Part shown: piece after piece, positions 45-18,496 of the stretch
Layout: every line of letters starts with the position of its first letter
Numbering within the stretch: the stretch's first letter is position 1
Assembly (NCBI GenBank): GCA_028704885.1
Contig: JAQWEN010000001.1
Coordinates: 427,999 to 491,998 of the forward strand
DNA from: Candidatus Shapirobacteria bacterium
GTDB lineage: Bacteria > Patescibacteriota > Microgenomatia > UBA12405
DNA length: 64,000 nucleotides
Direction: 5' to 3'
Program-made: the position numbers and the translations under genes
The notes under the pieces: model-generated
Told to the model about the DNA's origin: nothing
Database searches by the model: none
Seen by the model: only the letters and a program-made list of their open reading frames with translations

Positions 45-1013
45 TTATTTTTTGATTATTTTTTTAATATTGCAATATGTTTGCCACAATTTAAAATATT
101 TGGATAAAAAAATTTTATTTAATTTAATTTCGTCGTTGGAAATACTTCTGTTTATTTCTTCAATCTTTTTAATTAAATCTAAATTTTTTGATTGGTAGTA
201 AGATATCTCTTTATCTATTTCCTTATATATTTTTTCTAACTTTAGGTTTATTTCTGCTTTATAAGTTTGACAAACATTCAAATTAAATGTTTTATCGTAA
301 TAATGGGACCAGATGTCTGGAAAACAAAAAATATTATTTTGTTGAGGTTTTAGAAAGAGGACTCCAAGACCATGAGAATGGAAAAATTCTAGCGAAGAAT
401 ATTTGTTTTTCAGTTCATCCCAAAGTTTATAGACACCAAAGTCTTCTTTTTTTTCCGCAATATCATGAAACATGACAATACCATCTTTTTTTACCTTAGA
501 TATCCAATTATTAAAATCATGCCTAACTGCTTCGTAAGTGTGTAATCCGTCTATGTGTAATAAATCTATTGAATTGTCTTCAAATTCTAAAAGAGCATCG
601 TCAAAATATTTTTTAATTAAATTTATTTTTAGTGATTTATAAAATTTATCTTTTATTTCTTTAACTTCATTTAAAACAGTATTGTCATAAAATCCAGCTT
701 GTTTATCCCCTTCCCAACTATCGATTGCATATAAATTGCAGTCTAATTGCTCATCTTTTACTGCTTGGCACATAGAAAAGAAAGAAGTGCCTTTATGCGT
801 TCCTAATTCAACTATAGTTTTTGGTTTAATATTTCTAACTAAATCATAGGCAAAATATTTATGTCCTGCCCATGGCCAGTCTAAATCTGGAAAGATTGCT
901 TCATATTCAAATTTTGGATTATAAAACTCAAATTTTGTTAATATTTTTATATTATTGTCCATTTGAATATTTTTTAACTGCTGCGGTGGGGGTGGTGTCG
1001 CATTGAATTTCAT
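45..1013 (-). CDS. Class I SAM-dependent methyltransferase (Methyltransf_24-like) with a ~70-aa C-terminal coiled-coil-like tail
   Basis: Motifs IVELGTHKGTSFF (SAM-binding glycine-rich loop), AIDSWEGD and LLHIDGLHTYEAVRHDFNNW...DGIVMFHDI. The C-terminus EINLKLEKIYKEIDKEISYYQSKNLDLIKKIEEINRSISNDEIKLNKIF is heptad-like. It lies immediately downstream of wzt in the same operon. The first 17 aa overlap the wzt 3' end, and an internal ATG at 960-962 (MDNNIKIL) is an equally plausible start. Confidence 0.6.
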   Translation of the reverse strand: MKFNATPPPPQQLKNIQMDNNIKILTKFEFYNPKFEYEAIFPDLDWPWAGHKYFAYDLVRNIKPKTIVELGTHKGTSFFSMCQAVKDEQLDCNLYAIDSWEGDKQAGFYDNTVLNEVKEIKDKFYKSLKINLIKKYFDDALLEFEDNSIDLLHIDGLHTYEAVRHDFNNWISKVKKDGIVMFHDIAEKKEDFGVYKLWDELKNKYSSLEFFHSHGLGVLFLKPQQNNIFCFPDIWSHYYDKTFNLNVCQTYKAEINLKLEKIYKEIDKEISYYQSKNLDLIKKIEEINRSISNDEIKLNKIFLSKYFKLWQTYCNIKKIIKK

Positions 1014-1782
1014 GGTGGTTTAGATAGATGGCACGAGTGCAGAATTTTTCAACTTGGCCAAGGCTATGGGAAACAAAAATTATAGTAATATCTTTTGATT
1101 TTTTAAATTCTTCCATTTTGGCAAAACATTTTTCTTGGAAAGCAGAGTCACCTACCGCAAGAATTTCATCGACAATTAAAATTTCTGGATGAACGTGAAT
1201 AGCCACGGCAAAAGCCAGGCGCATATACATACCTGAAGAATAATGTTTGACTGGTTGGTCTATAAATTCCCAAAGTTCAGCAAAATCAACAATTGATTTG
1301 TAACTTTGATCGATTTCTTTGCGTTTAAGGCCAAGAATGGCACCATTTAGATAAATATTTTCTTTACCAGTTAGTTCTGGATGGAAACCGGCACCAAGCT
1401 CGATTAGAGGTGAGATTTTGCCCTTGACATATACTTTTCCACTAGTAGGCCACATAACACCGGCAATGAGCTTTAGAATAGTAGATTTACCACTGCCATT
1501 GGGGCCGATAATGCCAACCGTCTCCCCTTTTTTTATTTCAAAACTAATGTCATTTAGGGCCGTAAAACTTTCACTAGTTTTTTCGCCGCGAATTAGAGCG
1601 GGAAGAAATTCTTTGAAGGTTTTATGACTTAATTTGCTAAATTGTTTGGAAACATGATCAAATTTAATGACTATTTGATCTGGTTCGCTAGTACGCTGGT
1701 TCGCTAGTACGCTGGAACTTTGAAGTTTTGGTTCGCTAGTTCGCTGGTTCGCTGGAACTTTTGAACTCTGTTTATTGATCAT
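952..1782 (-). CDS. wzt: ABC transporter ATP-binding protein for a polysaccharide exporter (Wzt/TagH/KpsT-like), lacking a C-terminal carbohydrate-binding domain
   Basis: Walker A GIIGPNGSGKSTILKLIAG, the ABC signature YSSGMYMRLAFAVAI and Walker B ILIVDEILAVGD. It sits next to an ABC-2 permease. About 35 aa precede the usual N-terminal IVIKFDHVSKQF motif, and that extension is encoded by a tandem DNA repeat. Confidence 0.8.
   Translation of the reverse strand: MINKQSSKVPANQRTSEPKLQSSSVLANQRTSEPDQIVIKFDHVSKQFSKLSHKTFKEFLPALIRGEKTSESFTALNDISFEIKKGETVGIIGPNGSGKSTILKLIAGVMWPTSGKVYVKGKISPLIELGAGFHPELTGKENIYLNGAILGLKRKEIDQSYKSIVDFAELWEFIDQPVKHYSSGMYMRLAFAVAIHVHPEILIVDEILAVGDSAFQEKCFAKMEEFKKSKDITIIFVSHSLGQVEKFCTRAIYLNHHEIQCDTTPTAAVKKYSNGQ
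1681..1768. repeat. Degenerate tandem repeat with 16-nt periodicity (units tggttcgctagtacgc x2, tggaactttgaagttt, tggttcgctagttcgc, tggttcgc, tggaacttttgaactc), lying inside the 5' end of wzt
   Basis: Read directly from the sequence. It encodes the 48-nt-periodic peptide PANQRTSEP...ANQRTSEP in the Wzt N-terminal extension. A related copy lies at 2142-2170 on the other side of the four-helix-bundle gene. Confidence 0.7.
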
Positions 1783-2134
1783 TGTTATATTTTACCTTAG
1801 TAATAAAAGAATTTAGCATTTTAGCTAATGATTCATATTGATCTAAAAGAGCTTTTGCTTGTGATTTTTCAATATAACCTATGTCTTGGCTAAAAAGTAT
1901 AAAATTTTGAGTTTCATAAAGAGAACCTTTGGACTGATACAGGAATTGAATAAATTCTTTGTTGCCCTTACGTCCAAAACCTTCGGCAATATTAGCAGAG
2001 ATAGAAGTGGATGCTCTTTGTAGTTGAGATATTATTCCAAATATTTCTGATTTTGGAAATGTTTGGGTTATCTTATATATGGAAATAGCTAGTTTATTAG
2101 CTTCTTTCCAAATGTTTAAATCTGTAAAATTCAT
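1772..2134 (-). CDS. Four-helix-bundle protein of the 23S rRNA intervening-sequence protein family (TIGR02436/PF05635-like; same family as DGR Avd)
   Basis: 120 aa with the family hallmarks W.EA..L...IY..T..FPK.E..G...Q..RA..SI.ANIAEG..R....EF..FL..S.GS..E.Q. Its stop overlaps the wzt start by 11 nt. It is bracketed by copies of the GGTTCGCTAGTAC(G/A)CTGGTTCG repeat. Confidence 0.8.
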   Translation of the reverse strand: MNFTDLNIWKEANKLAISIYKITQTFPKSEIFGIISQLQRASTSISANIAEGFGRKGNKEFIQFLYQSKGSLYETQNFILFSQDIGYIEKSQAKALLDQYESLAKMLNSFITKVKYNNDQ

Positions 2135-2234: not shown

Positions 2235-3035
2235 CTAAATGTTATCGGCGAAGATTTTTTCGCGAGATTTAAAATAACGAAGACCAAATAAAAGAACAAC
2301 AAAGGAAAGAATAGTGGCAATTATGAGACTAGAATATTTTGGAACTCCACCGCTAAGAATAACTTGACGATAAGCATTAGTAATAACAGCCATAGGATTT
2401 AATTGAAAAATGATCTTATATTTTGCAGGAATCATGTCGGCTGAGTAAATTATCGGGGTGACATACATCCATAAAAGTAAAATCATAGATAATAAATATT
2501 GAACGTCGCGATAAAGAAGATTGGCAGCAGCAAAGAAAAGAGATAGACCGAGAGTGAAAATTTGTTGAATGAAAAAGATTGGAATAACCCAAAGAATATT
2601 AATATTTATGGGCATGTGATAGGCAATCATATAGATGATTAAAACTATGTTGGCAAAAAGGAAATCAATTATTTTGGCGATGATAGTGGAAATTACTAAT
2701 ATAGTTCGGGGAAAATAAATTTTAGTAATTAAACCACCGGCACTAACCAGAGAAGCAGAGGCAGAAGAAAGAGAATTGGAAAAAAGAGTCCACGGTAAGA
2801 GGGCGACAAAAAGAAATATAGAATAAGGAATGTGTCCCGAAGAATAAGTTGGAATGCGCATAATAATGGAAAAGGCAAAAGACATAACCAACATTTGGGC
2901 CAAAGGATTTAAAATTACCCAAAAATAACCAAGAATGGATTGTTTATAGCGGGCTTTAACTTCACGGCCAACCATCTGCCAAAGTAATTCGCGCCATTTA
3001 TGAATAGCTTGGATTTCTTTTATAAGCGATAACAT
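2235..3035 (-). CDS. wzm: ABC-2 type polysaccharide exporter permease (Wzm/TagG/KpsM-like)
   Basis: N-terminus WRELLWQMVGREVKARYKQSILGYFWVILNPLAQMLVMSFAFSII is the classic ABC-2 permease signature. The protein is 266 aa with about 6 TM segments and sits upstream of wzt. Confidence 0.8.
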   Translation of the reverse strand: MLSLIKEIQAIHKWRELLWQMVGREVKARYKQSILGYFWVILNPLAQMLVMSFAFSIIMRIPTYSSGHIPYSIFLFVALLPWTLFSNSLSSASASLVSAGGLITKIYFPRTILVISTIIAKIIDFLFANIVLIIYMIAYHMPININILWVIPIFFIQQIFTLGLSLFFAAANLLYRDVQYLLSMILLLWMYVTPIIYSADMIPAKYKIIFQLNPMAVITNAYRQVILSGGVPKYSSLIIATILSFVVLLFGLRYFKSREKIFADNI

Positions 3036-5218: not shown

Positions 5219-5262
5219 AAACCCACTCCTAAATCCCCTCCCTTGAGGAAATGAGGGGACTT
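5219..5262. other. GC-rich structured intergenic element E2 (AAACCCACTC ... CCCCTC / GAGGGG 6-bp stem ... ACTT), related to E1
   Basis: Stem 5235-5240 pairs with 5253-5258. It lies between yvcK and the TMTC-like gene and shares its 5' decamer and stem chemistry with 3075-3141. Confidence 0.35.
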
Positions 5263-7018
5263 GGTAAAATCAAATATGTCACAGAAAAAACTTAAGAAAT
5301 TAAGAAAATTGGAAGCTGTAAATTTAGTAAAAGAAGTAATTTTGGAGCCGGTTGCGGGTTTTAGGCAAATTATTAAAGAAAATTGGAAATTTTTATTAGC
5401 CTTGATAGTTGGTGTTTTTATATTGTACTTAAATAGTTTGCATGGAGACTTTGTTTCTGATGATTATGCTTCGATAACTCAATATGCTGATATTAAAAAT
5501 CTTTCTGTTGTATTGAAAAAGCCAAATTTACCAGGATTTACTAATAGTGTTTTGGCAATAATATTTGGAATTACTAGCTCTTTTCCTTATCACTTAACTA
5601 ATTTAATTTTATATTTATTGATTTTAATAGTGGCTTTTGTTTTTGTTTTTTTAATAACAAGAAACAAAATAACATCAATGTTAACTTTGGTTTTATATGC
5701 GGTTTTACCTGTTCATGCAGAAACAATTTCATGGATTTCTGGAAGACCTTATCTATTTGTTGCTTTGTTTGTTCTTTTGTCCTTGGATTTGTTAATTTTG
5801 TTTTTAAATAAAAAACAACCTAAATATTTATGGCTAATGTTACCGACTCTAATTCTATTATTTTTGACAGATAGAATTAGAGGGTTTGCAATTGTAATTT
5901 TGTCAGTTTTATATTTCTTGACGTATAAAAATGAACTTGGTTATAAATTTAAAATAGGTAAAATTTTAATTGCAGCAATAGTGGTGACGGTAACCCTAGC
6001 GATTATTTCCTGGCCAATGATTCAGGCCAGAATTGGAGATGTTAATAGTGGTTATAACGGTTCTGAAAGTGTTTTTTATAATCCATTTTTCCAATATCCA
6101 ACTTCAATAGCTAAATATTTGCAAATAATGCTTTTTCCGGTTGATATGACTTTGTATCATACGATGTATATTTTGCCGGTTTGGTTAAATTGGATGATAC
6201 TTTTGACATTTTTAGCTTCGATTGGATATTTTTTCTTTAAAGATAAAAAAATGTTTTTTGCTTTAGCATTTATATTTTTAGCAGCGGCACCATCAATGGC
6301 GCCAGTAAAAGTTAGTTGGCTGGTAGCGGAAAGATATGTATTACTTGGAAGTTTAGGTCTTTGTTTATTTTTAATATTATTTTTTCAAAGATTTGATAAA
6401 AAATGGAAAATTCCATTTTTGATTTTATTTGTAATTTTTACTGGACTATATTCTGCAAGAGTTTATCTAAGAAACATAGATTGGAAAACAAATCACAACT
6501 TGTGGGTTAGTACTTGTCAGTATTCACCAAATAGTCATAATGCTTGGAATAATATTGGGGATGATTACGATAAATTGGCTCAATTAGAAACAACTCCTGA
6601 AGGACAAATGAATCAATATTTGAATTCAATTAAAGGTTTTACTAGATCGACAATTGTTAAAACTAATTATGCTGATGCTTTTCATAATAGAGCTAACATT
6701 TTTTACAAAATAGGAAGATATGATTTGGCTAGAGATAGTTATGAAACTGCTCTTTATTATGGACCAAATCTTTATCAAAGTTATTTTAGTCTTTTACAAA
6801 TCGATTTGAGTGAAAAAAGATATGATTTGGCGATGGATCATTTAAATAAATTACATAAGGCTAAACCAAATGATATTCAGGTTTATTATGTGACGGCAGT
6901 AGTATATGCGAATGCTGGAATGAAAGATGAAGCTAAAAAATTATTGACACAAATATTACAAGCCTACCCTGAATTTCAACAAGCAAAAGATTTGTTAGAT
7001 CAGTTAAATAAAATGTGA
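5261..7018 (+). CDS. TMTC-like GT-C membrane glycosyltransferase (DD-motif N-terminal membrane domain plus C-terminal TPR repeats)
   Basis: GDFVSDDYASITQYADIKN follows TM1 and matches the TMTC/DUF1736 DF..DD motif. About 10 TM helices are followed by TPR-like repeats (YYKIGRYDLARDSYETALYYGPN..., AVVYANAGMKDEAKKLL). The track start is TTG 5261, and ATG 5276 (MSQKKLKK) is more plausible. Confidence 0.6.
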   Translation: MVKSNMSQKKLKKLRKLEAVNLVKEVILEPVAGFRQIIKENWKFLLALIVGVFILYLNSLHGDFVSDDYASITQYADIKNLSVVLKKPNLPGFTNSVLAIIFGITSSFPYHLTNLILYLLILIVAFVFVFLITRNKITSMLTLVLYAVLPVHAETISWISGRPYLFVALFVLLSLDLLILFLNKKQPKYLWLMLPTLILLFLTDRIRGFAIVILSVLYFLTYKNELGYKFKIGKILIAAIVVTVTLAIISWPMIQARIGDVNSGYNGSESVFYNPFFQYPTSIAKYLQIMLFPVDMTLYHTMYILPVWLNWMILLTFLASIGYFFFKDKKMFFALAFIFLAAAPSMAPVKVSWLVAERYVLLGSLGLCLFLILFFQRFDKKWKIPFLILFVIFTGLYSARVYLRNIDWKTNHNLWVSTCQYSPNSHNAWNNIGDDYDKLAQLETTPEGQMNQYLNSIKGFTRSTIVKTNYADAFHNRANIFYKIGRYDLARDSYETALYYGPNLYQSYFSLLQIDLSEKRYDLAMDHLNKLHKAKPNDIQVYYVTAVVYANAGMKDEAKKLLTQILQAYPEFQQAKDLLDQLNKM

Positions 7019-8178
7019 AGATCTTATTTATAGAGCCGTGTTATTTTAATTTTGGGGGTTATTTTAGAGCAATTAATATCTGTACGGCACTTTCAAAAAA
7101 AGGATTTTCTATTGATCTTTTGTTGCCTTCGGATAAAAAATTTTTTTGGAAAATCAGAAAAACAAAAATTAATGAAAATTTGACAATGTATGAATTGCCA
7201 AGATTTTATATAAATTTTTTTGTTCAAGGGCGAATTTTAAGAGGATTTATTGCTACTTTGTTTGGAATTTTTAAAAAATATGATATTGTCCATGCAGCCA
7301 TGCCAGTGGAATTTGAATCGAATATTCCAGCTTTAATATTGAAAATTTTTGGTAAAAAGATTGTGATGGATTGGGACGATAGATTTGAAGACGGGGTTTT
7401 TAGTGGAAATAAAATTTTACATATGTATTTGCGTCTTTGTGAACATGGAATGCCTAAAATAATTAAAAATTATTGTGTGGCTAATGATGTTTTGGGTGAT
7501 TTAGCTAAAGAATATGGAGCTAATAATATAATTAGTATTATTAATGGAGTTAACCTTGATCAGGTTAAAGTTTTGGATAAAAAACAATCGAGAAAGAAAT
7601 TGGAATTAGACAATGAAACTAAATATCTGTTGACTTTTGGGAATACTTTTTCTGAAGAAAGAATTTTTTTATTATTTAAAACTTTGAATTATATTTTTAG
7701 TTTAGATAAAAACACAAAAATAATTTGTACTCTTAATCCTAATAAAATATTGGAAAATAAAAAAATAAAAAAGTTTTTTAATTCAAAATATCTAGATAGA
7801 TTTATAAATGTGAATTATATTCAACCAAATGATTTAGGATTATACTTATCGGCTTGTGATGCTAGTGTTTTTATTGCTGGCGATGATCCGAAAGAAAAAG
7901 TTTGTTTTCCAATAAGAATTGGAACTTATTTATGCGGTGAAACAATAATTGTAATGAATGATGTCAATTCTGAAGTGAATAAAATTTTAGATAAATATAA
8001 ATGCATGGTAATAGATAAAGATTTGGAAAAATTAGCAGCTAAAACAGTAAAAATGCTTTATTCCCCTACGATTCAAAGTGATTTAAAAAAGAAGGTAAAA
8101 TTGGCAAAAAAAGAATTATCTTATGATAATTTAGTGGCAGATTTAATTGGTTACTATCAAAAAATATTAAATGATTAA
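7015..8178 (+). CDS. GT-B fold glycosyltransferase (divergent GT4-like)
   Basis: N-terminus MKILFIEPCYFNFGGYFRAINICTALSKKGF is Rossmann-like, and a C-terminal FPIRIGTYLCGETIIVMND nucleotide-sugar-binding-like segment is present. A GTG start overlaps the previous stop. The call is weak. Confidence 0.4.
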   Translation: MKILFIEPCYFNFGGYFRAINICTALSKKGFSIDLLLPSDKKFFWKIRKTKINENLTMYELPRFYINFFVQGRILRGFIATLFGIFKKYDIVHAAMPVEFESNIPALILKIFGKKIVMDWDDRFEDGVFSGNKILHMYLRLCEHGMPKIIKNYCVANDVLGDLAKEYGANNIISIINGVNLDQVKVLDKKQSRKKLELDNETKYLLTFGNTFSEERIFLLFKTLNYIFSLDKNTKIICTLNPNKILENKKIKKFFNSKYLDRFINVNYIQPNDLGLYLSACDASVFIAGDDPKEKVCFPIRIGTYLCGETIIVMNDVNSEVNKILDKYKCMVIDKDLEKLAAKTVKMLYSPTIQSDLKKKVKLAKKELSYDNLVADLIGYYQKILND

Positions 8179-8956
8179 AGAAACAACAGTTAGTGAATTA
8201 AAAAAGATCTGGAATAAATATAATGACTATTCTGAATTAGATGGATTATTAAAAAATCTTAGAGAGAATGATGGAAAGGAAATTAAAGATTGGTTACATT
8301 TGCCGATTCATTTGCCGTTTATTAAAAAAGAATTAAAAGGTTTAAGTAAAAATGCCAAAGTATTAGAGGCTGGCTGTGGTTTTGGTCATTGGGTTTTTTG
8401 GATGGCAGAGCAAGGTTATCAAGCTGTGGGTGTTGACTTGGCTCCTAAGGCCATTATTACGGCTAAAAATTATGCTAAAAAAAATAATCTTAAAAATTGT
8501 GAATTTATTGAGGGCGATATTCGTAAATTACCAATAAAAGATAATTATTTTGATATTATTTTTAGTTTTGGAGTTATTGAGCATTTTCATAATCCAGAAA
8601 TTATTTTAGATGAATTAAAAAGGGTGTTGAAACCAGGTGGAAAGATATTTTTTAGTGTACCTAATCAATATTCTTTCCATACATTAACGAGAATAATTTT
8701 AAAAGGAATCGGTAAATGGCATTTAGGTTATGAACGCTCATATAGTTCTAAATCATTAAATATATTATTTAGGAAATGCGGATTTGAAGTTTTAAGAGGC
8801 GGAATAATGCCTGGAGGTGAATTGTTTGGAAGAGGGATGAATAATATTCCCTTGATTGGTGATTTTCTGTTTAAATTATTTTCGAAAATAAGTTTTTATA
8901 TAGAAAATCATCAAAAAATTTTTGGTTTTTGGCTTTATGGAGTGGCAAAAAAATAA
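8171..8956 (+). CDS. Class I SAM-dependent methyltransferase (Methyltransf_11/23-like)
   Basis: VLEAGCGFGHWVFWMAEQGYQAVGVDLAP (motif I), FDIIFSFGVIEHF and LKPGGKIFFSVPN. Confidence 0.75.
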   Translation: MIKETTVSELKKIWNKYNDYSELDGLLKNLRENDGKEIKDWLHLPIHLPFIKKELKGLSKNAKVLEAGCGFGHWVFWMAEQGYQAVGVDLAPKAIITAKNYAKKNNLKNCEFIEGDIRKLPIKDNYFDIIFSFGVIEHFHNPEIILDELKRVLKPGGKIFFSVPNQYSFHTLTRIILKGIGKWHLGYERSYSSKSLNILFRKCGFEVLRGGIMPGGELFGRGMNNIPLIGDFLFKLFSKISFYIENHQKIFGFWLYGVAKK

Positions 8957-9780
8957 AAAAAATGAAAAATATAAAAACGAGAAAACAAAAATGGCTCGAT
9001 GCCCAAAAGGGAGAATTAAAGTCTTGGACTATCGGGGATTTAGATTGTAAGGGTTTAATTAACTCATGGAAAAATAGAATTAATAATTATAAAATTGATT
9101 TTTCTGATTTTAAAGTTTCTACAAAAATTTTAGATGTTGGTTGTGGTCCGGTATCAATATTGGAAATATTGCCTAAATCAAAAACAATGATAGCTACAGA
9201 TTCTTTGAATGATAAATATCAAAAATATTTTTTTAGAAAAAATACTAATATTGAATATAAAAATTTTGCTGCCGAGAATATTCCTTATAAAAATAATTAT
9301 TTTGATGTTATTTTCTGCCTTAATGCATTTGATCATTTAGAAAAGCCATTTGTGGCTTTAAGCGAAATGTTAAGAGTATTAAAGACAAGTGGTCGTATTT
9401 ATGTTGAATTTGAAAATACTTCTCCTATGGTTAAATTTTTAAGTAGATTTGGTTATAAAAAACCATTAAGTCAGTTTCATCCACATTTACTTAGTTTAGA
9501 TAATATTGAAAAATATATTAAAAAGAACCATCAAAATGTCAATATAGAAATAATAGATTTAAAGCCAGAATTTAATTTTAATAAAATTATTTATCTTATA
9601 GAAATAATTTTAAGAAAGAAAAAAATGACTAAAAGTGAGACAAATATAAGTGCAATAAGTGCTGGTCCTTTAAGATTTTTTTTCCATTATATAATAATCG
9701 TAATCGAAAGGTTATTTTTTATTTTTAATCCTAAAAAGTATTCGTATTTTAATATTATAGTATTAAAAAAAATAAAATAA
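8929..9780 (+). CDS. Class I SAM-dependent methyltransferase
   Basis: ILDVGCGPVSILEILP, FDVIFCLNAFDHLEKP and LKTSGRIYVE. The C-terminal ~80 aa of this ORF may be read-through and not part of the protein. Confidence 0.7.
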   Translation: MALWSGKKIKKMKNIKTRKQKWLDAQKGELKSWTIGDLDCKGLINSWKNRINNYKIDFSDFKVSTKILDVGCGPVSILEILPKSKTMIATDSLNDKYQKYFFRKNTNIEYKNFAAENIPYKNNYFDVIFCLNAFDHLEKPFVALSEMLRVLKTSGRIYVEFENTSPMVKFLSRFGYKKPLSQFHPHLLSLDNIEKYIKKNHQNVNIEIIDLKPEFNFNKIIYLIEIILRKKKMTKSETNISAISAGPLRFFFHYIIIVIERLFFIFNPKKYSYFNIIVLKKIK

Positions 9781-11283
9781 TTATTTTTTCTTTTGGTTAT
9801 TCTTTCCTTTCCCAAAGAATAGGATTTTTAAAGCTGGGCTTTTCTTTTCTTTTAATACTTTATAGATATAGATAGGATTGAGTAAAACGTATTTGAAATA
9901 AAATTTAAAGTTTAACCATGTAATTAATAATTTTATTTTTAAAATCATTGATAAATATTTTTGATCGTGACGTTTTTCCGGATTAAGAAATACCCTGTCT
10001 TCTAAAAAATAAAATCTATCTTTTTTCCAAAACTCAAAACAAGCTTTAAGTGGAATTTCTGTAAATAAATTATCAACATTCATATTTTTTGATACCAAGC
10101 CCTTTTCTAGTGCATAGTCCCAAATTTTAGTGCCGGGATAAGCAATTAAGATGTAAATGTTGGGATTTTCGATGGGGTGTTTTTTTAGTAATTGATAGGT
10201 GGCTTGCAAATCTTCAATTGTTTCTCCTGGTATAGTGACAATAAAACCACTGGAAACTCCAATTCCATATTTATGACATAAATCTATAGCTTTTATATTT
10301 TGTTCAACTGAAACAGAATTAGCTTTTAAATAATTGAGCATTTTGGAACTAAAACTTTCAAAACCAAAAGATATTCTTTTTACGTTCATACTCTTTAGAG
10401 CCTTAACAACATCTTCGTCGATTAAATCGGCCTTACCAAATCCAGAAAATACAATTTTTTTGTGCCATCCTCTTTTTTTAATTTCATTAGCTAGATGAAT
10501 TAATCTTGCTTTTGGAGCGGTAAAAAAATCGTCAAAAAAATATAGGCCATCGATGTCGTAATTTTTGATTAGATAATCAATTTCTTTAATAATATATTCA
10601 ACAGAATGAAACCTAACAGAACCCCATTGAACATTGGATGCACAATGGAGACAATGGTAAGGACAACCTCTTGATGTCATCATGCCAGTAAGTCTTTTCA
10701 TTCCGTATAAATTGAGTTGACGGCTTAAATATTTTTTTTCCATAGGAACGAATTCTCTTGAAGGTATTGGTAATTGATCAATGTTTTGAATTAGTTTTCT
10801 GGGTTTAGTTTTAATTAACTTATTTTTTTCAAAATATACTAAACCGTCTATTTTAGAATTTTTAATATTATTTTTTTTATCATTTTTATATGCTTCAATT
10901 ATTTCACCAAGTGTTATTTCTCCTTCACCTATAACACCAACATCAAAAACTTTATCAAAAGAATCAGGACAGCCAGTGATATGGGTGCCACCTATTATAA
11001 TTTTAGTTTTAATAGATTGTTTAACTTTTTTTGCTATTGATTTAGTGAAATCGTAGTTAACGGAATCGACAGTAAAACCAACAATATTAGGGTGATATTT
11101 AATTATTTTTTTTAATGGTTTACTATCTTCAATGATTTTTATGTCTACGAAAGGATATTTTTCTTTTATACAACTTCCTAAACACATAAGACCGAAATGG
11201 GGAATATTGTTCCAAACTTTTTCGCAATTAACTAATAATAGCTTTATTTTCTTTTCTTTACGGTTCATGAAATATGATAGCAT
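9781..11283 (-). CDS. B12-binding-domain radical SAM enzyme (class B; putative sugar C-methyltransferase or modifier)
   Basis: The N-terminal Rossmann-like B12-binding region (KIKLLLVNCEKVW...IVGFTV...IIIGGTHIT) is followed by MMTSRGCPYHCLHCAS, the CxxxCxxC cluster. Confidence 0.8.
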   Translation of the reverse strand: MLSYFMNRKEKKIKLLLVNCEKVWNNIPHFGLMCLGSCIKEKYPFVDIKIIEDSKPLKKIIKYHPNIVGFTVDSVNYDFTKSIAKKVKQSIKTKIIIGGTHITGCPDSFDKVFDVGVIGEGEITLGEIIEAYKNDKKNNIKNSKIDGLVYFEKNKLIKTKPRKLIQNIDQLPIPSREFVPMEKKYLSRQLNLYGMKRLTGMMTSRGCPYHCLHCASNVQWGSVRFHSVEYIIKEIDYLIKNYDIDGLYFFDDFFTAPKARLIHLANEIKKRGWHKKIVFSGFGKADLIDEDVVKALKSMNVKRISFGFESFSSKMLNYLKANSVSVEQNIKAIDLCHKYGIGVSSGFIVTIPGETIEDLQATYQLLKKHPIENPNIYILIAYPGTKIWDYALEKGLVSKNMNVDNLFTEIPLKACFEFWKKDRFYFLEDRVFLNPEKRHDQKYLSMILKIKLLITWLNFKFYFKYVLLNPIYIYKVLKEKKSPALKILFFGKGKNNQKKK

Positions 11284-11325
11284 TATTTCTTGTTTAATAA
11301 GGTATTTTTTAAAAAATGTTAAAAG

Positions 11326-12888
11326 TTATTTTAATATCTTATATTTATAAGCGGCTTTAAGACGATGAGTTTTTAGCTCTCCAAATTTAATAGTAGAAAC
11401 AACCATTGATAAATAATTTCTGATTATTTTGACAAGATAACTAAAATCTTCCCAATTATGAATTTTTTTGATAATAGTTGCCGGTTTGATAATGGGACGG
11501 AAAAAACGAGAAAGCATCAATTTTCTTTGGGCTTTATTACGGAGATTTCGAATGTCATTTACAGAAAGATATTTATTTCCCAAACCGGCATAACCAGAAA
11601 ATGTTTTACCAATTTTGGTATTGCTAATGTCAGCTTTTTTTAATAGACCTTCATCTTCTAAAATTTTAGTAACATCTGTTTCGGGAAAAGGCATTAATAA
11701 GATAAAAACAACAAAATCAGAAAGAGATTTAATGGCGTAATTAAAGGTGGTTTCAATAGCTTTTTTGGTTTCATAAGGAAAACCAATTATGTAAGTAGAA
11801 AAAGTCCAAATACCAAGACTATTCGTAAGTTTAATTATTTTTTTGGCTTTTTGTAAATTTAAATTTTTTCTAATAAATTTTTGAGTGACAGGATGACCAG
11901 ATTCAATACCAAAAGTTAATCGATAACAACCACTCTTTTTCATTTTTTTAAGAAGAGATCTATTTAAAGTCCAAATAGCTATGCCATTAGGACAAGTCCA
12001 TTTAATATCTAATTTTTTGGCAATAATTCCGTCGCAGATTTTTTCTAGTCGATCGCGACTGACAGAAATATTATCGTCGAGAAAATGAATTTCCTTAATA
12101 CCATATCTTTTAACTAAAAATTCGATTTCATTAACGATACGCTCAGCACTAAAAGGTCGCCAACTTCGACCCCAAATTCCAGGAACAGCACAGTAAATAC
12201 AATTTCCAGGACAGCCACGGCTGGTAACAACGGTGGTGGCTGGAGAACGCATGTCATAAGTATTTTTACTTTCTGCATAAACCCTAAGATAAACGTCCAT
12301 AGGAAATAAATGTCGAGCTGGAAGCGGTAGAGAATCTAATTTAGCAATCGGAAGACGACGTGGATTCAAAATAATTTCGCCTTGATCATTTCTTATGGCA
12401 GTACCATTTATATTTTGAAGACTTTCCTTATTTTCGAATTTTTTAACTATTTCAAGAATAGTATATTCACCTTCACCAATAACCACGATGTCAACATTAG
12501 GATCATGAAGAACATTTTTATAAAGAATTGAAGCATGAGCACCACCAAAAACAACTAATGTTTTGGGATTGAATTGTTTGACTATTTTGGCAACATCATG
12601 AGAATCGCTGGAATAGGCTGTGAACATAGTGCTGATACCAACAATATCCGGTTTGAAGTATTCTAATCTTTCAAGAATTGTTTTTTCTGATAAACCAACC
12701 CTGGTATAATTTTTGGTTTTTTTGACAATATCGATGCCTTCAGCCAGAGCATCGATAGCAGAAACATTATAACCATTGGTTTCTAAAATGGCACCAATGT
12801 TAGCTAAACCTAGTGGTATGGCGGCACCGGGAGTAGTGGTGTCATTACTTCTAATAGTCATTGGTGGGTAAATAAGGAGGATTTTCAT
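11326..12888 (-). CDS. B12-binding-domain radical SAM enzyme (class B)
   Basis: MKILLIYPP...IVGISTMFT...LVVFGGAHAS is followed by VVTSRGCPGNCIYCAV. Confidence 0.8.
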   Translation of the reverse strand: MKILLIYPPMTIRSNDTTTPGAAIPLGLANIGAILETNGYNVSAIDALAEGIDIVKKTKNYTRVGLSEKTILERLEYFKPDIVGISTMFTAYSSDSHDVAKIVKQFNPKTLVVFGGAHASILYKNVLHDPNVDIVVIGEGEYTILEIVKKFENKESLQNINGTAIRNDQGEIILNPRRLPIAKLDSLPLPARHLFPMDVYLRVYAESKNTYDMRSPATTVVTSRGCPGNCIYCAVPGIWGRSWRPFSAERIVNEIEFLVKRYGIKEIHFLDDNISVSRDRLEKICDGIIAKKLDIKWTCPNGIAIWTLNRSLLKKMKKSGCYRLTFGIESGHPVTQKFIRKNLNLQKAKKIIKLTNSLGIWTFSTYIIGFPYETKKAIETTFNYAIKSLSDFVVFILLMPFPETDVTKILEDEGLLKKADISNTKIGKTFSGYAGLGNKYLSVNDIRNLRNKAQRKLMLSRFFRPIIKPATIIKKIHNWEDFSYLVKIIRNYLSMVVSTIKFGELKTHRLKAAYKYKILK

Positions 12889-12893
12889 ATTAT

Positions 12894-14354
12894 TTATTTT
12901 TTAGATGGAGAAATTAGAAAAACAAAAAGTTTATTAAATAATTTATTATCATAAACTAATTTTCTAGAAAGGTGTCCTAAAATTGGTACACGGGTTAATA
13001 AATAAAAAATAATTCCTAATATTTTGCCGAAACGGAATTGATAAAGCTTTCTTTCGTATAAATTAAAACCTTTTTTCATGATACTAATTCGCTGGTTTTT
13101 GGTAAATTCTTTAGTTTCAAAAATAGGATTAATGTCGCGATAAGATATTTCCTTTAGATATTGATTTTTGGGAATTAAAAAATGAGCGTGTTTAATTGCC
13201 CAGTAATAAACTTCGGTACCAGGATAAGGAACAAGATTATAGAAATTAACATAATTACAATTTAACTTTTTAGCGAAATTAAGAGTTTCTATGGCATCTT
13301 GATAGGTTTCATCTTGGTGGCCAATAATAAAATTAACGGCGTGTTTAATTTTAGCTTGATTAGTAAATTTTACAGCTTGGATAACTTGGTCTAAAGTAAT
13401 ATTTTTTTTGATTCGGTCAAGAATTTTTTGACTGCCTGATTCACAACCATAAGCAATAAAAAAACAACCAGTTTTTTTTAATTTTTTGAGAAGTTTTAGG
13501 GTTATATTATTAACTCTAATGCCGTTGTAAAGTTGAAACTTGAGGTGAAGTTTATTTTTAATGATTAAATCACAAATGGCTTCGGCTCGATTAATATCAA
13601 GAGTAAAACAATCATCATTAAAATCGAAATTGGTAAAACCTTTCTTGTACCAATAAGTAATTTCATCAATAACATTTTGAGGACTACGTGGTCGAAAACT
13701 TTGACCCATAGAGAGGCGGACAGAACAATAATTACAACCATGAGGACAACCACGAGAAGTAATAATAGGAATAATTTTTTCCCGAAAACAAGGGTAGGCC
13801 GACAAATTAAAACTTTCGTAATCTGGGAAAGGTAATTGATCTAGATGTTGAATTAGAGGCGCTGGTGAGTTAATAATTATTTTGTTTTTGTTTTTCCAAA
13901 TGAGATTTGGTACTTTAGAGAAATCTGGTTTTTTTTGAAAAAAAACTTTTAAAAAATCAATAATAGAAGTTTCTGACTCACCGTACATAGCAAAAGTAAC
14001 CTTGGTTTCTTTTAATATTTTATCTTTGGTAGCAGAAACGTGAGGACCACCAAGGATAATGGGGGTAGCAGTAATGGATTTGATTTTTTTAATTGCTTGA
14101 TAAATATATTTATAAGCATAACTAAACCCAGTGACACCAATGATGTCGGGAGAAAAAACTTTTATAATAGTTTTTAATTTAGTTGGCCAATCTTTTTCAA
14201 TTCCACAATCAATAATTTGATATTGATAATTATTGGCTTTGAGGATAGAGACAAGATAGGCAATACCAACATGAGGATGGATAGGAGTCCCCTTTTCGGT
14301 ACCGAACATAGATTTAACTTCCGGAATAACAAATAGTATTTTTTTGGATATCAT
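12894..14354 (-). CDS. B12-binding-domain radical SAM enzyme (class B)
   Basis: ILFVIPEV...IIGVTGFSY...IILGGPHVS is followed by IITSRGCPHGCNYCSV. Confidence 0.8.
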   Translation of the reverse strand: MISKKILFVIPEVKSMFGTEKGTPIHPHVGIAYLVSILKANNYQYQIIDCGIEKDWPTKLKTIIKVFSPDIIGVTGFSYAYKYIYQAIKKIKSITATPIILGGPHVSATKDKILKETKVTFAMYGESETSIIDFLKVFFQKKPDFSKVPNLIWKNKNKIIINSPAPLIQHLDQLPFPDYESFNLSAYPCFREKIIPIITSRGCPHGCNYCSVRLSMGQSFRPRSPQNVIDEITYWYKKGFTNFDFNDDCFTLDINRAEAICDLIIKNKLHLKFQLYNGIRVNNITLKLLKKLKKTGCFFIAYGCESGSQKILDRIKKNITLDQVIQAVKFTNQAKIKHAVNFIIGHQDETYQDAIETLNFAKKLNCNYVNFYNLVPYPGTEVYYWAIKHAHFLIPKNQYLKEISYRDINPIFETKEFTKNQRISIMKKGFNLYERKLYQFRFGKILGIIFYLLTRVPILGHLSRKLVYDNKLFNKLFVFLISPSKK

Positions 14355-17383: not shown

Positions 17384-18496
17384 TCAAAAAATTGGATTAA
17401 GAGAACAACATCTAAAACAAGCAGGTATTATTTTATTTTTTTGGATGTATTTTTGAAATCTAATAGTTTTTTTGTTATGCCAAATATCTAAAAGCGAATT
17501 TTCTTTTATATTTCCCAAAATATAACCATGACACATCTCAATATCACCATTACCTCGGAGAAAAACTTGATTAAAGGGTGATGTACAAATAGATTCTTTT
17601 TTGGGAATGGCGCCAGTATAAAAATTTTTGATATCCATACTATTTGGCATAGTAATTTTTACTTTTGATTTATTGCTGTTTATTAAGGCTTGAGTTTCTT
17701 TTAATTTTTGAGAAATAGTTAATCTTTCTTTGGCATTAAAAAGAACTTTTTTAGTGCCGTTGTATTCGCCCCAAACATCATTTCCAAACTTAGTTTTTTG
17801 ACTGAATTTTAATTGTTGTTTTCTTATTTTGTCGTAAAAATAAAAATGATGACTAATTGACCATTCATCAACACCTAAATCTTTAATAACTTCGTAAATT
17901 TTGTCAAAATTAGCGATATTTGATTTAGAGATAACAGTGGCAATACGAATATTGGGAAAAGTGTTCTTACCCCTTAATTCAATTATTTTTTTAATGCCTT
18001 TAATTATTTGAGGGAATGAATCTTTAACTAATCCTCTCTGGTATTGAGTTGCTTCATCTGGACCATCAAGAGAAATGGCTAAAAAATCGAGTCCAGAATT
18101 AATTAAATCAGCAGCCATCTTTTCAAGCAACATACCATTGGTCACAAGGCCTTTGACTATTCTTTTTTGATCTAAATATTTTATTATGTCAATAATTTCT
18201 GGGTGCATTAAGGGTTCTCCACCGGCTAATGAAACTGAGGGAGAATAAGGAGCAATATTATCAAAAAACTTTTTTAAATCAGGTAAAGAAAGTTCGTTCA
18301 TATTTTTAAGACGAGAAGTTACAACATGGCACATGGGACAATTAAAATTACAACGTTCCGTAATAAAACAATTTATCGTTCGAGGAAAAGGAGTGGCTTT
18401 ATTTTCATATAAATATTTATCAAAGACAGTATTTTTGGCAGTTGATGGATATTTAATTGCTAATTTAATTTTTTTTTGAAGGTTTAGCTGAGCCAT
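17384..18496 (-). CDS. Radical SAM enzyme with a SPASM/twitch C-terminal domain
   Basis: ITERCNFNCPMCHV (CxxxCxxC) and the C-terminal cysteine cluster CTSPFN...GDIEMCHGY...IIPACFRCCS. Confidence 0.8.
   Translation of the reverse strand: MAQLNLQKKIKLAIKYPSTAKNTVFDKYLYENKATPFPRTINCFITERCNFNCPMCHVVTSRLKNMNELSLPDLKKFFDNIAPYSPSVSLAGGEPLMHPEIIDIIKYLDQKRIVKGLVTNGMLLEKMAADLINSGLDFLAISLDGPDEATQYQRGLVKDSFPQIIKGIKKIIELRGKNTFPNIRIATVISKSNIANFDKIYEVIKDLGVDEWSISHHFYFYDKIRKQQLKFSQKTKFGNDVWGEYNGTKKVLFNAKERLTISQKLKETQALINSNKSKVKITMPNSMDIKNFYTGAIPKKESICTSPFNQVFLRGNGDIEMCHGYILGNIKENSLLDIWHNKKTIRFQKYIQKNKIIPACFRCCSLNPIF

Follow-up and report, generated by a model that had tools for sequence, protein, structure and literature searches.

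At one edge of the 64,000-nucleotide stretch of a Candidatus Shapirobacteria contig analysed here (the window), the minus strand encodes a predicted methyltransferase with a coiled-coil tail, which we consider, with slightly better than even confidence, to be the chain-terminating half of a split terminator–polymerase machine. It would act on a polysaccharide exported by Wzm–Wzt, adding an O-methyl group to the non-reducing end at a site about 10 nm from the polymerase. Systems of this kind are known; what is different here is the methyltransferase family, the split layout with a duplicated coil and motif, the exporter that has no carbohydrate-binding module, and the host lineage. We infer terminal capping and chain-length control by analogy with characterised systems.

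The open reading frame list gives the gene as 322 codons on the minus strand, 45..1013, read from an ATG at 1013. An NCBI-annotated protein of a Candidatus Shapirobacteria MAG (P0001) is 100% identical and starts at M18, the ATG at 962, to give 305 aa, and the homologues begin at the equivalent position; the true start is thus probably 962 and not 1013. Residues are numbered by the 305-aa form unless stated. The earlier note had described a reading frame with a Methyltransf_24-like domain directly downstream of wzt. The frame, the domain (PF13578; residues 68–185 in the numbering of the 322-aa form, E 4e-26, 92.3 bits against a gathering threshold of 26.3) and the gene order are all borne out, but the strand had been omitted and the start at 1013 gives way to the likelier 962. 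From 962 the gene overlaps wzt by 11 nt, and from 1013 the overlap would be 62 nt.

The window ends 44 bases past the methyltransferase gene, and we read the continuation from the parent contig. On the same strand, a 497-aa GT2 begins 4 nt past the methyltransferase stop and is followed by a 410-aa GT4 and an epimerase/dehydratase. The operon order is therefore wzm–(IVP)–wzt–MT–GT2–GT4–epimerase, in one direction, with neighbours overlapping or abutting. NCBIfam has no family model for the methyltransferase and names the sugar genes further downstream in generic terms only. The Wzt was said to lack a C-terminal carbohydrate-binding domain, and this is confirmed: Pfam detects ABC_tran only, and an HMM of Wzt_C made from Wzt proteins of neighbouring loci finds no such domain in any window ORF or in the downstream 10 kb. 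The features of the gene and its transporter are collected in the table.

Table. Features of the methyltransferase–coiled-coil gene and the adjoining transporter genes (window coordinates; residues of the 305-aa form).
Feature	Position	Strand	Description and evidence
Methyltransferase–coiled-coil gene	45..962	minus	305 aa + stop; 322-aa form from ATG 1013 (ORF list)
Catalytic domain, residues 1–205	348..962	minus	Predicted class I SAM-dependent, MeT1/CmcI-like O-methyltransferase; Pfam Methyltransf_24, AlphaFold2 Rossmann fold with pLDDT >90
SAM-binding glycine loop VELGTHKGTS, residues 51–60	783..812	minus	E52, L53, G54, G58, S60 invariant (50 homologues)
HIDGLHTYE, residues 136–144, most conserved block	531..557	minus	H136, I137, D138, G139, H141, T142 invariant (50 homologues)
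Coiled-coil stalk, single helix, residues 215–285, ~10 nm	108..320	minus	AlphaFold2 helix; heptad score; homologue length variation
Coil-end motif and terminal basic/aromatic helix, residues 286–305, LSKYFKLWQTYCNIKKIIKK	48..107	minus	Family conservation; motif PSSM 17.0
wzt, ABC-transporter ATPase	952..1782	minus	276 aa; Pfam ABC_tran only; NCBIfam best matches TagH, Wzt/RfbE types
wzm, ABC-2 permease	2235..3035	minus	Pfam ABC2_membrane and NCBIfam Wzm/RfbD-like, both below cut-off

Several other features of this region deserve mention. Between wzm and wzt lies a 120-aa gene (1772..2134, minus) of the 23S-rRNA-intervening-sequence / four-helix-bundle family (PF05635, E 1e-38), which overlaps the wzt start by 11 nt and is an odd insertion within an ABC-transporter operon. 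The Wzt itself carries an N-terminal extension of about 35 residues (1660..1782, minus) in which the peptide ANQRTSEP is repeated exactly (…VPANQRTSEPKLQSSSVLANQRTSEPDQ…); the short Wzt proteins of related loci are 234–288 aa. Two class I methyltransferases of the Methyltransf_11 type (261 and 283 aa; 8171..9780, plus), which have no coiled coils, may methylate sugars within the chain. Three tandem B12-binding radical SAM genes (500, 520 and 486 aa; 9781..14354, minus) and a SPASM-domain radical SAM gene (17384..18496, minus) lie among GT2/GT4 and epimerase genes. Between 12 and 64 kb most ORFs of at least 150 aa are on the minus strand; our annotation covered the window up to about 21.8 kb.

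The catalytic domain most resembles MeT1 among solved structures (6g7d and 6g80; Foldseek E 4e-11, profile search of the PDB E 3e-5). MeT1 is also the sole significant sequence match in the PDB, at about 18% identity, and the HIDGLHTYE segment aligns with FIDGGHTEE of MeT1 (6g7d); CmcI is a weak match there. The catalytic apparatus looks intact, and we predict a SAM-dependent sugar O-methyltransferase of the MeT1/CmcI type. The earlier note had proposed that homology to enzymes of the TylF or NovP type would speak against a terminator. We found that the methyltransferase scores 20.0 bits against the Pfam TylF model (PF05711), under the cut-off of 23. The test was itself ill posed, because TylF and NovP act on sugars already attached to an aglycone and not on nucleotide sugars.

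Beyond the Rossmann-type domain, which extends to about residue 205, the AlphaFold2 model (50-sequence alignment, pLDDT 91.8) has an unbroken 71-residue helix from 215 to 285, a two-residue kink, and then a second helix from 288 to 304. Our own simple heptad score for the tail is 11.7, with its peak at residues 236–285, against 6.7 ± 1.3 for composition-preserving shuffles, of which 1 in 500 reached the observed value. The tail of about 70 heptad-like residues that had been noticed in the sequence is thus upheld by both the structure prediction and the shuffles.

We asked how the length of this helix varies in the family. Coil length was measured from the helix start, anchored by a catalytic-domain HMM, to the motif at the coil end, located with a position-specific matrix, and among 125 non-identical coils it ranges from 22 to 379 residues. 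Sorted by length modulo 7, these coils fall into classes of 36, 43, 10, 3, 16, 15 and 2 (chi-square p = 4e-16; p = 7e-4 with each distinct length counted once), p-values to be read as indicative only, since the sequences are related, the anchors are our own and the statistics are not phylogeny-aware. For other moduli, significance is lacking at 5, 6 and 9 (p = 0.07–0.67), borderline at 8 (p = 0.05) and weak at 11 (p = 0.009). Length differences between nearest neighbours are multiples of 7 in 46 of 103 cases, against about 15 expected (p = 1e-13, with the same reservation), and another 21 equal 3 modulo 7. The coil distance of the window protein, 68 residues, belongs to class 5 modulo 7, a minor class outside the two dominant heptad classes. 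An earlier measurement with regular-expression anchors was discarded, as its N-terminal anchor could slide by one or two residues and so shift the heptad classes; one version of it, with distinct lengths counted once, was not significant (p = 0.38). As far as sequences can tell, the pattern with the HMM anchor is the one expected of a real coiled coil with both of its ends held in fixed register.

The polar helical segment often consists of tandem 7- or 14-residue repeats in the family sequences. Near-perfect examples occur in the coils encoded at L008:10016-13063, L005:3482-4484 and L011:1898-2812, and the repeat units seen include QAIQQKDQELANLT, present three times, VVKKKDEEVAELSE, present many times, and EIKEKNT/EIEEKNE. 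Such tandem repeats point to recent growth or shrinkage of the stalk by whole heptads.

At the end of the coil lies a conserved motif, which takes the form SSKFWKLR or SAKFFKLWQxYC (SxKFFKLW) in Patescibacteria and S-x-S-W-R/K-x-T-x-P-L-R elsewhere. We built a matrix from both variants, using the MT24 family only, and scanned 617,333 positions in 3,397 ORFs; 23 of the 32 matches are in family members. The matrix also finds the motif at residue 45 of the GT2 directly downstream of the methyltransferase (score 20.7) and near the N-terminus of the glycosyltransferases that follow the methyltransferase in two other loci, L006 and L002. The N-terminus of the GT2 indeed consists of a short coil and the motif, as in the methyltransferase tail, and BLASTP aligns the two with E = 4e-5. 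E. coli WbdD is matched exactly at its coil end (score 10.7), whereas WbdD was missed by a narrow HMM built on the Patescibacteria form of the motif. The WbdD of E. coli HS (L082:17967-20093, minus) has HRSRSWRMTKGYRYL at residues ~590–604, directly past the coiled coil, and reads …QQLRQEIEKIHRSRSWRMTKGYRYL… at the coil end; in the literature examined we found no mention of this motif. A deltaproteobacterial locus, L017, encodes two coiled-coil proteins of 809 and 1,164 aa (L017:11488-13917 and L017:14251-17745) with the motif as SSTSWRLTRPLR and NSISWRITKPIR, so the module is not confined to methyltransferase-bearing proteins. The scan gave a single probable false positive, a 585-aa protein of the window (5261..7018, plus) with membrane-type hydrophobic segments and C-terminal TPR repeats. 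A TPR protein (WsaA) is likewise encoded in the S-layer glycosylation cluster of G. stearothermophilus, together with an oligosaccharyltransferase.

In relatives the two proteins form a single polypeptide. The separate 1,026-aa glycosyltransferase of L006 aligns with the fused protein of L003 over a stretch that starts within the coil, crosses the motif and runs to the end, at 36% identity. By this alignment the split and fused forms are fission or fusion counterparts, both of which retain the coil and the motif, and this argues that the methyltransferase and the glycosyltransferase of the next gene associate physically. The fission argument rests on L006 and L003, as the window GT2 gave a weak colinear alignment only with the fused homologue P0063. 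The terminal helix that follows the motif is basic and aromatic, with a net charge of +6. Its hydrophobic moment is not above that of shuffles, and because it is not significantly amphipathic, we regard membrane binding by this helix as putative.

The methyltransferase belongs to a very large family: a single search gave 2,867 matches, and at E <= 1e-30 there are 3,664 clusters (50% identity). Its members share one plan: a catalytic domain, a helix that starts at a conserved W-x-x-Y-Y, a polar helix of variable length, and the motif, beyond which either the protein ends or polymerising glycosyltransferase modules (GT2/RgpF/GT4) begin. Fused members include those of L003 (1,247 aa, MT24-GT2-GT2-GT4), L004 (MT24-RgpF-GT1) and L007 (1,861 aa). 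Homologues in GC-rich hosts (Truepera, deltaproteobacteria) carry the same coil element. Our literature search found no biochemistry of any family member and nothing that joins Methyltransf_24 with polysaccharide; a 2019 survey of terminators may already list the family.

We examined 80 loci from species-representative genomes together with the parent contig of the window (L001), and located Wzm, Wzt and the glycosyltransferases by BLASTP with the window proteins. Linkage was counted in the 57 loci where the methyltransferase gene was not truncated and sufficient DNA lay upstream of it, and a member was called tailed if at least 60 aa extend C-terminally from the end of its catalytic domain; dividing tailed from bare members by the end of the BLAST match had misfiled close relatives and was abandoned for this definition. 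A wzt gene lies directly upstream in 27 of 36 tailed loci versus none of 21 with bare methyltransferases (Fisher p = 7e-9). The Wzt beside a tailed member is long (356–664 aa) in 23 of these 27 loci and short in the other four, that of the window included, and Pfam confirmed Wzt_C in all six of the long proteins tested. In two of these six loci (L011 and L013) the Wzt adjoins a stand-alone methyltransferase–coil protein of about 300 aa, as in the window. Pfam finds Wzt_C absent from the Wzt of L006, L023, L026, L027 and L072. The pairing with a Wzt that lacks the carbohydrate-binding module therefore recurs, mostly in Patescibacteria and Truepera.

In many related loci an extra small gene stands between wzt and the coiled-coil methyltransferase (L003:9331-9990, L013:8515-9153, L068:9275-9946, L030:8358-9032, L011:1339-1944 and L027:1279-1854). 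It encodes a coil-less methyltransferase (MT24, CmcI or TylF type, ~210–225 aa) or a hexapeptide-repeat acyltransferase (~190–200 aa), a hint that the glycans bear more than one decoration, terminal or in-chain.

Published work describes a characteristic marker of capped ABC-transporter-dependent glycan assembly, a coiled-coil protein whose distal end carries the terminator (PMC11231755); in WbdD and WbbB this coil is the ruler (PMC11231755, PMC3482155). The family agrees with that description in each point, and the window protein is a minimal member in split form. As in the systems with WbdD (E. coli O9a/O8, Klebsiella O3/O5), the gene described here lies after wzm–wzt and before the polymerising glycosyltransferases, the order in E. 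coli HS (O9) being wzm–wzt–wbdD–wbdA–wbdB–wbdC; and the terminator-type catalytic domain is likewise N-terminal and followed by an extended coil and a motif of the S-x-S-W-R/K-x-T type. Unlike WbdD, the protein has a methyltransferase domain of another family and no kinase domain, its coil of ~70 residues is about half as long (the C-terminal domain of WbdD spans 460–708), its partner glycosyltransferase bears a coil and motif of its own, the Wzt is without a carbohydrate-binding module, and the host is a Patescibacteria organism and not an LPS producer. Direct similarity is limited to a 40-residue coil match in BLASTP (E 0.02), and WbdD appears neither in the PDB profile search nor among the Foldseek top 50. 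The suggestion that this is a WbdD-like terminator or ruler thus survives in its gene order, coil, coil-end motif and link to wzt, but not in its catalytic domain, which is non-homologous, nor in the exporter, where Wzt_C is absent. The C-terminal region of WbdD is reported to serve in membrane binding and recruitment of the polymerase (PMC11231755, PMC3447403).

The layout of many family members, with an N-terminal terminator-type domain, a coil and then GT2, GT4 or RgpF modules, is that of WbbB (Klebsiella O12) and of ORF6 of Klebsiella O7, and the methyltransferase and GT2 of the window look like a split form of it. The terminator is a beta-Kdo transferase in WbbB and a methyltransferase–kinase pair in ORF6-O7 (PMC11231755); here it would be a lone MeT1-like methyltransferase, split from its glycosyltransferase. 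In Geobacillus stearothermophilus NRS 2004/3a, which has a Gram-positive-type envelope, the S-layer glycan is capped by WsaE through its N-terminal methyltransferase, and the genes wzm, wzt and wsaE overlap, a likeness that we draw from the published description only (PMC2943079). WsaE differs in that a single protein combines three functions and in that the Wzt of its system is predicted to bind the methylated terminus. MeT1 of Mycobacterium hassiacum is SAM-dependent like our protein and acts on oligomannoside ends, at the reducing-end 1-OH of a cytoplasmic mannan, in a pathway whose mannan is heavily methylated in-chain (PMC9883506); it lacks a coiled coil and is not linked to an ABC exporter.

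Three features of the WbdD-type class are present at this locus. The methyltransferase domain, a putative terminator, precedes the helix, and the glycosyltransferase modules of fused relatives lie beyond the coil; the extended coiled coil is predicted with pLDDT >90; and the gene is encoded with wzm–wzt and GT2–GT4. The absent feature is the Wzt module that reads the cap, which is present and essential for export in all characterised capped systems (PMC11231755, PMC9445017). In the mechanism that we propose, the coils of the methyltransferase and the GT2 would pair and the coil-end motif would sit at the membrane beside the polymerase, which would keep the methyltransferase at a distance of about 10 nm. 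A chain would receive an O-methyl group at its non-reducing end only if it were long enough to reach the enzyme, and this methylation would stop elongation as in WbdD, WbbB and WsaE. Export would not be gated by the cap, because this Wzt is without the carbohydrate-binding module, and the stalk alone would then set chain length. A more general form of this proposal is one that we hold tentatively, at appreciably less than even confidence: that the system is a cap-and-ruler without cap reading by the exporter, that the separate terminator and polymerase reassemble through their duplicate coil and motif, that the motif is a general signature of the membrane-proximal base that includes WbdD, and that coil length predicts glycan length.

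The main rival reads the same architecture in another way. The enzyme may methylate sugars within the chain, in every repeat or at random, with the coil and motif serving only for docking, either on the membrane or on the glycosyltransferase complex, and the ratio of transporter to synthesis may set the chain length, as in Klebsiella O2a. We judge this somewhat unlikely. It draws its strength from the carbohydrate-binding module that is missing from this Wzt, a hallmark of uncapped systems (PMC11231755, PMC9445017), and also from MeT1, whose pathway makes an in-chain-methylated product (PMC9883506); a coil and motif shared by methyltransferase and GT2 would fit docking equally well. Against it, a rigid spacer of 22–379 residues that varies by heptads and stands before the glycosyltransferase modules would hinder the access to the growing site that in-chain work needs. 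The prevalence of long Wzt proteins beside tailed members, each of those tested with the cap-reading Wzt_C, also argues for capping in the family. Furthermore, in-chain methylation could fall to other enzymes, namely the separate coil-less small methyltransferases of many loci and, in the window, the two methyltransferases of the Methyltransf_11 type and a number of radical SAM enzymes.

Two other readings fare worse. The protein could be a TylF/NovP/CmcI-like tailoring enzyme whose substrate is a small molecule or a sugar precursor that has yet to be polymerised, its helical tail being for oligomerisation only. The fold is common to many small-molecule O-methyltransferases and there are the weak matches to Pfam TylF and to CmcI in the PDB, but the TylF score is under the curated cut-off, tailed members are tied to wzt when bare ones are not, fusions to polymerising glycosyltransferase modules are common, and the best structural match, MeT1, works on oligosaccharides (PMC9883506); we therefore consider tailoring improbable. 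Still less credible, and to our minds very improbable, is that the coiled coil has no structural role and is an artefact of composition in a protein rich in K, I, N and E. The genome is AT-rich, the tail is of low complexity, and its weak Pfam matches to unrelated coiled-coil families resemble noise. Yet the heptad score exceeds those of 499 in 500 shuffles that preserve composition, AlphaFold2 predicts a single confident helix, the same element occurs in the GC-rich Truepera and deltaproteobacteria, and the variation in length is quantised by seven.

To our knowledge, control of chain length by a coiled-coil ruler has been shown only in a few enterobacterial O-antigen systems. If the family works alike, with a terminal methyltransferase on a stalk, the ruler principle would reach thousands of uncharacterised systems (the 3,664 clusters), including those of Patescibacteria, whose envelopes are almost unknown. 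The four of 27 wzt-linked tailed loci in which a terminator-like protein accompanies a transporter without the cap-reading module would be natural cases for asking whether capping and export proofreading can be uncoupled. If the proposal is true, the coil-end motif shared with WbdD would be a sequence signature for glycan rulers, the candidate phyla radiation included, and the number of heptads in the coil would be a measurable predictor of glycan length.
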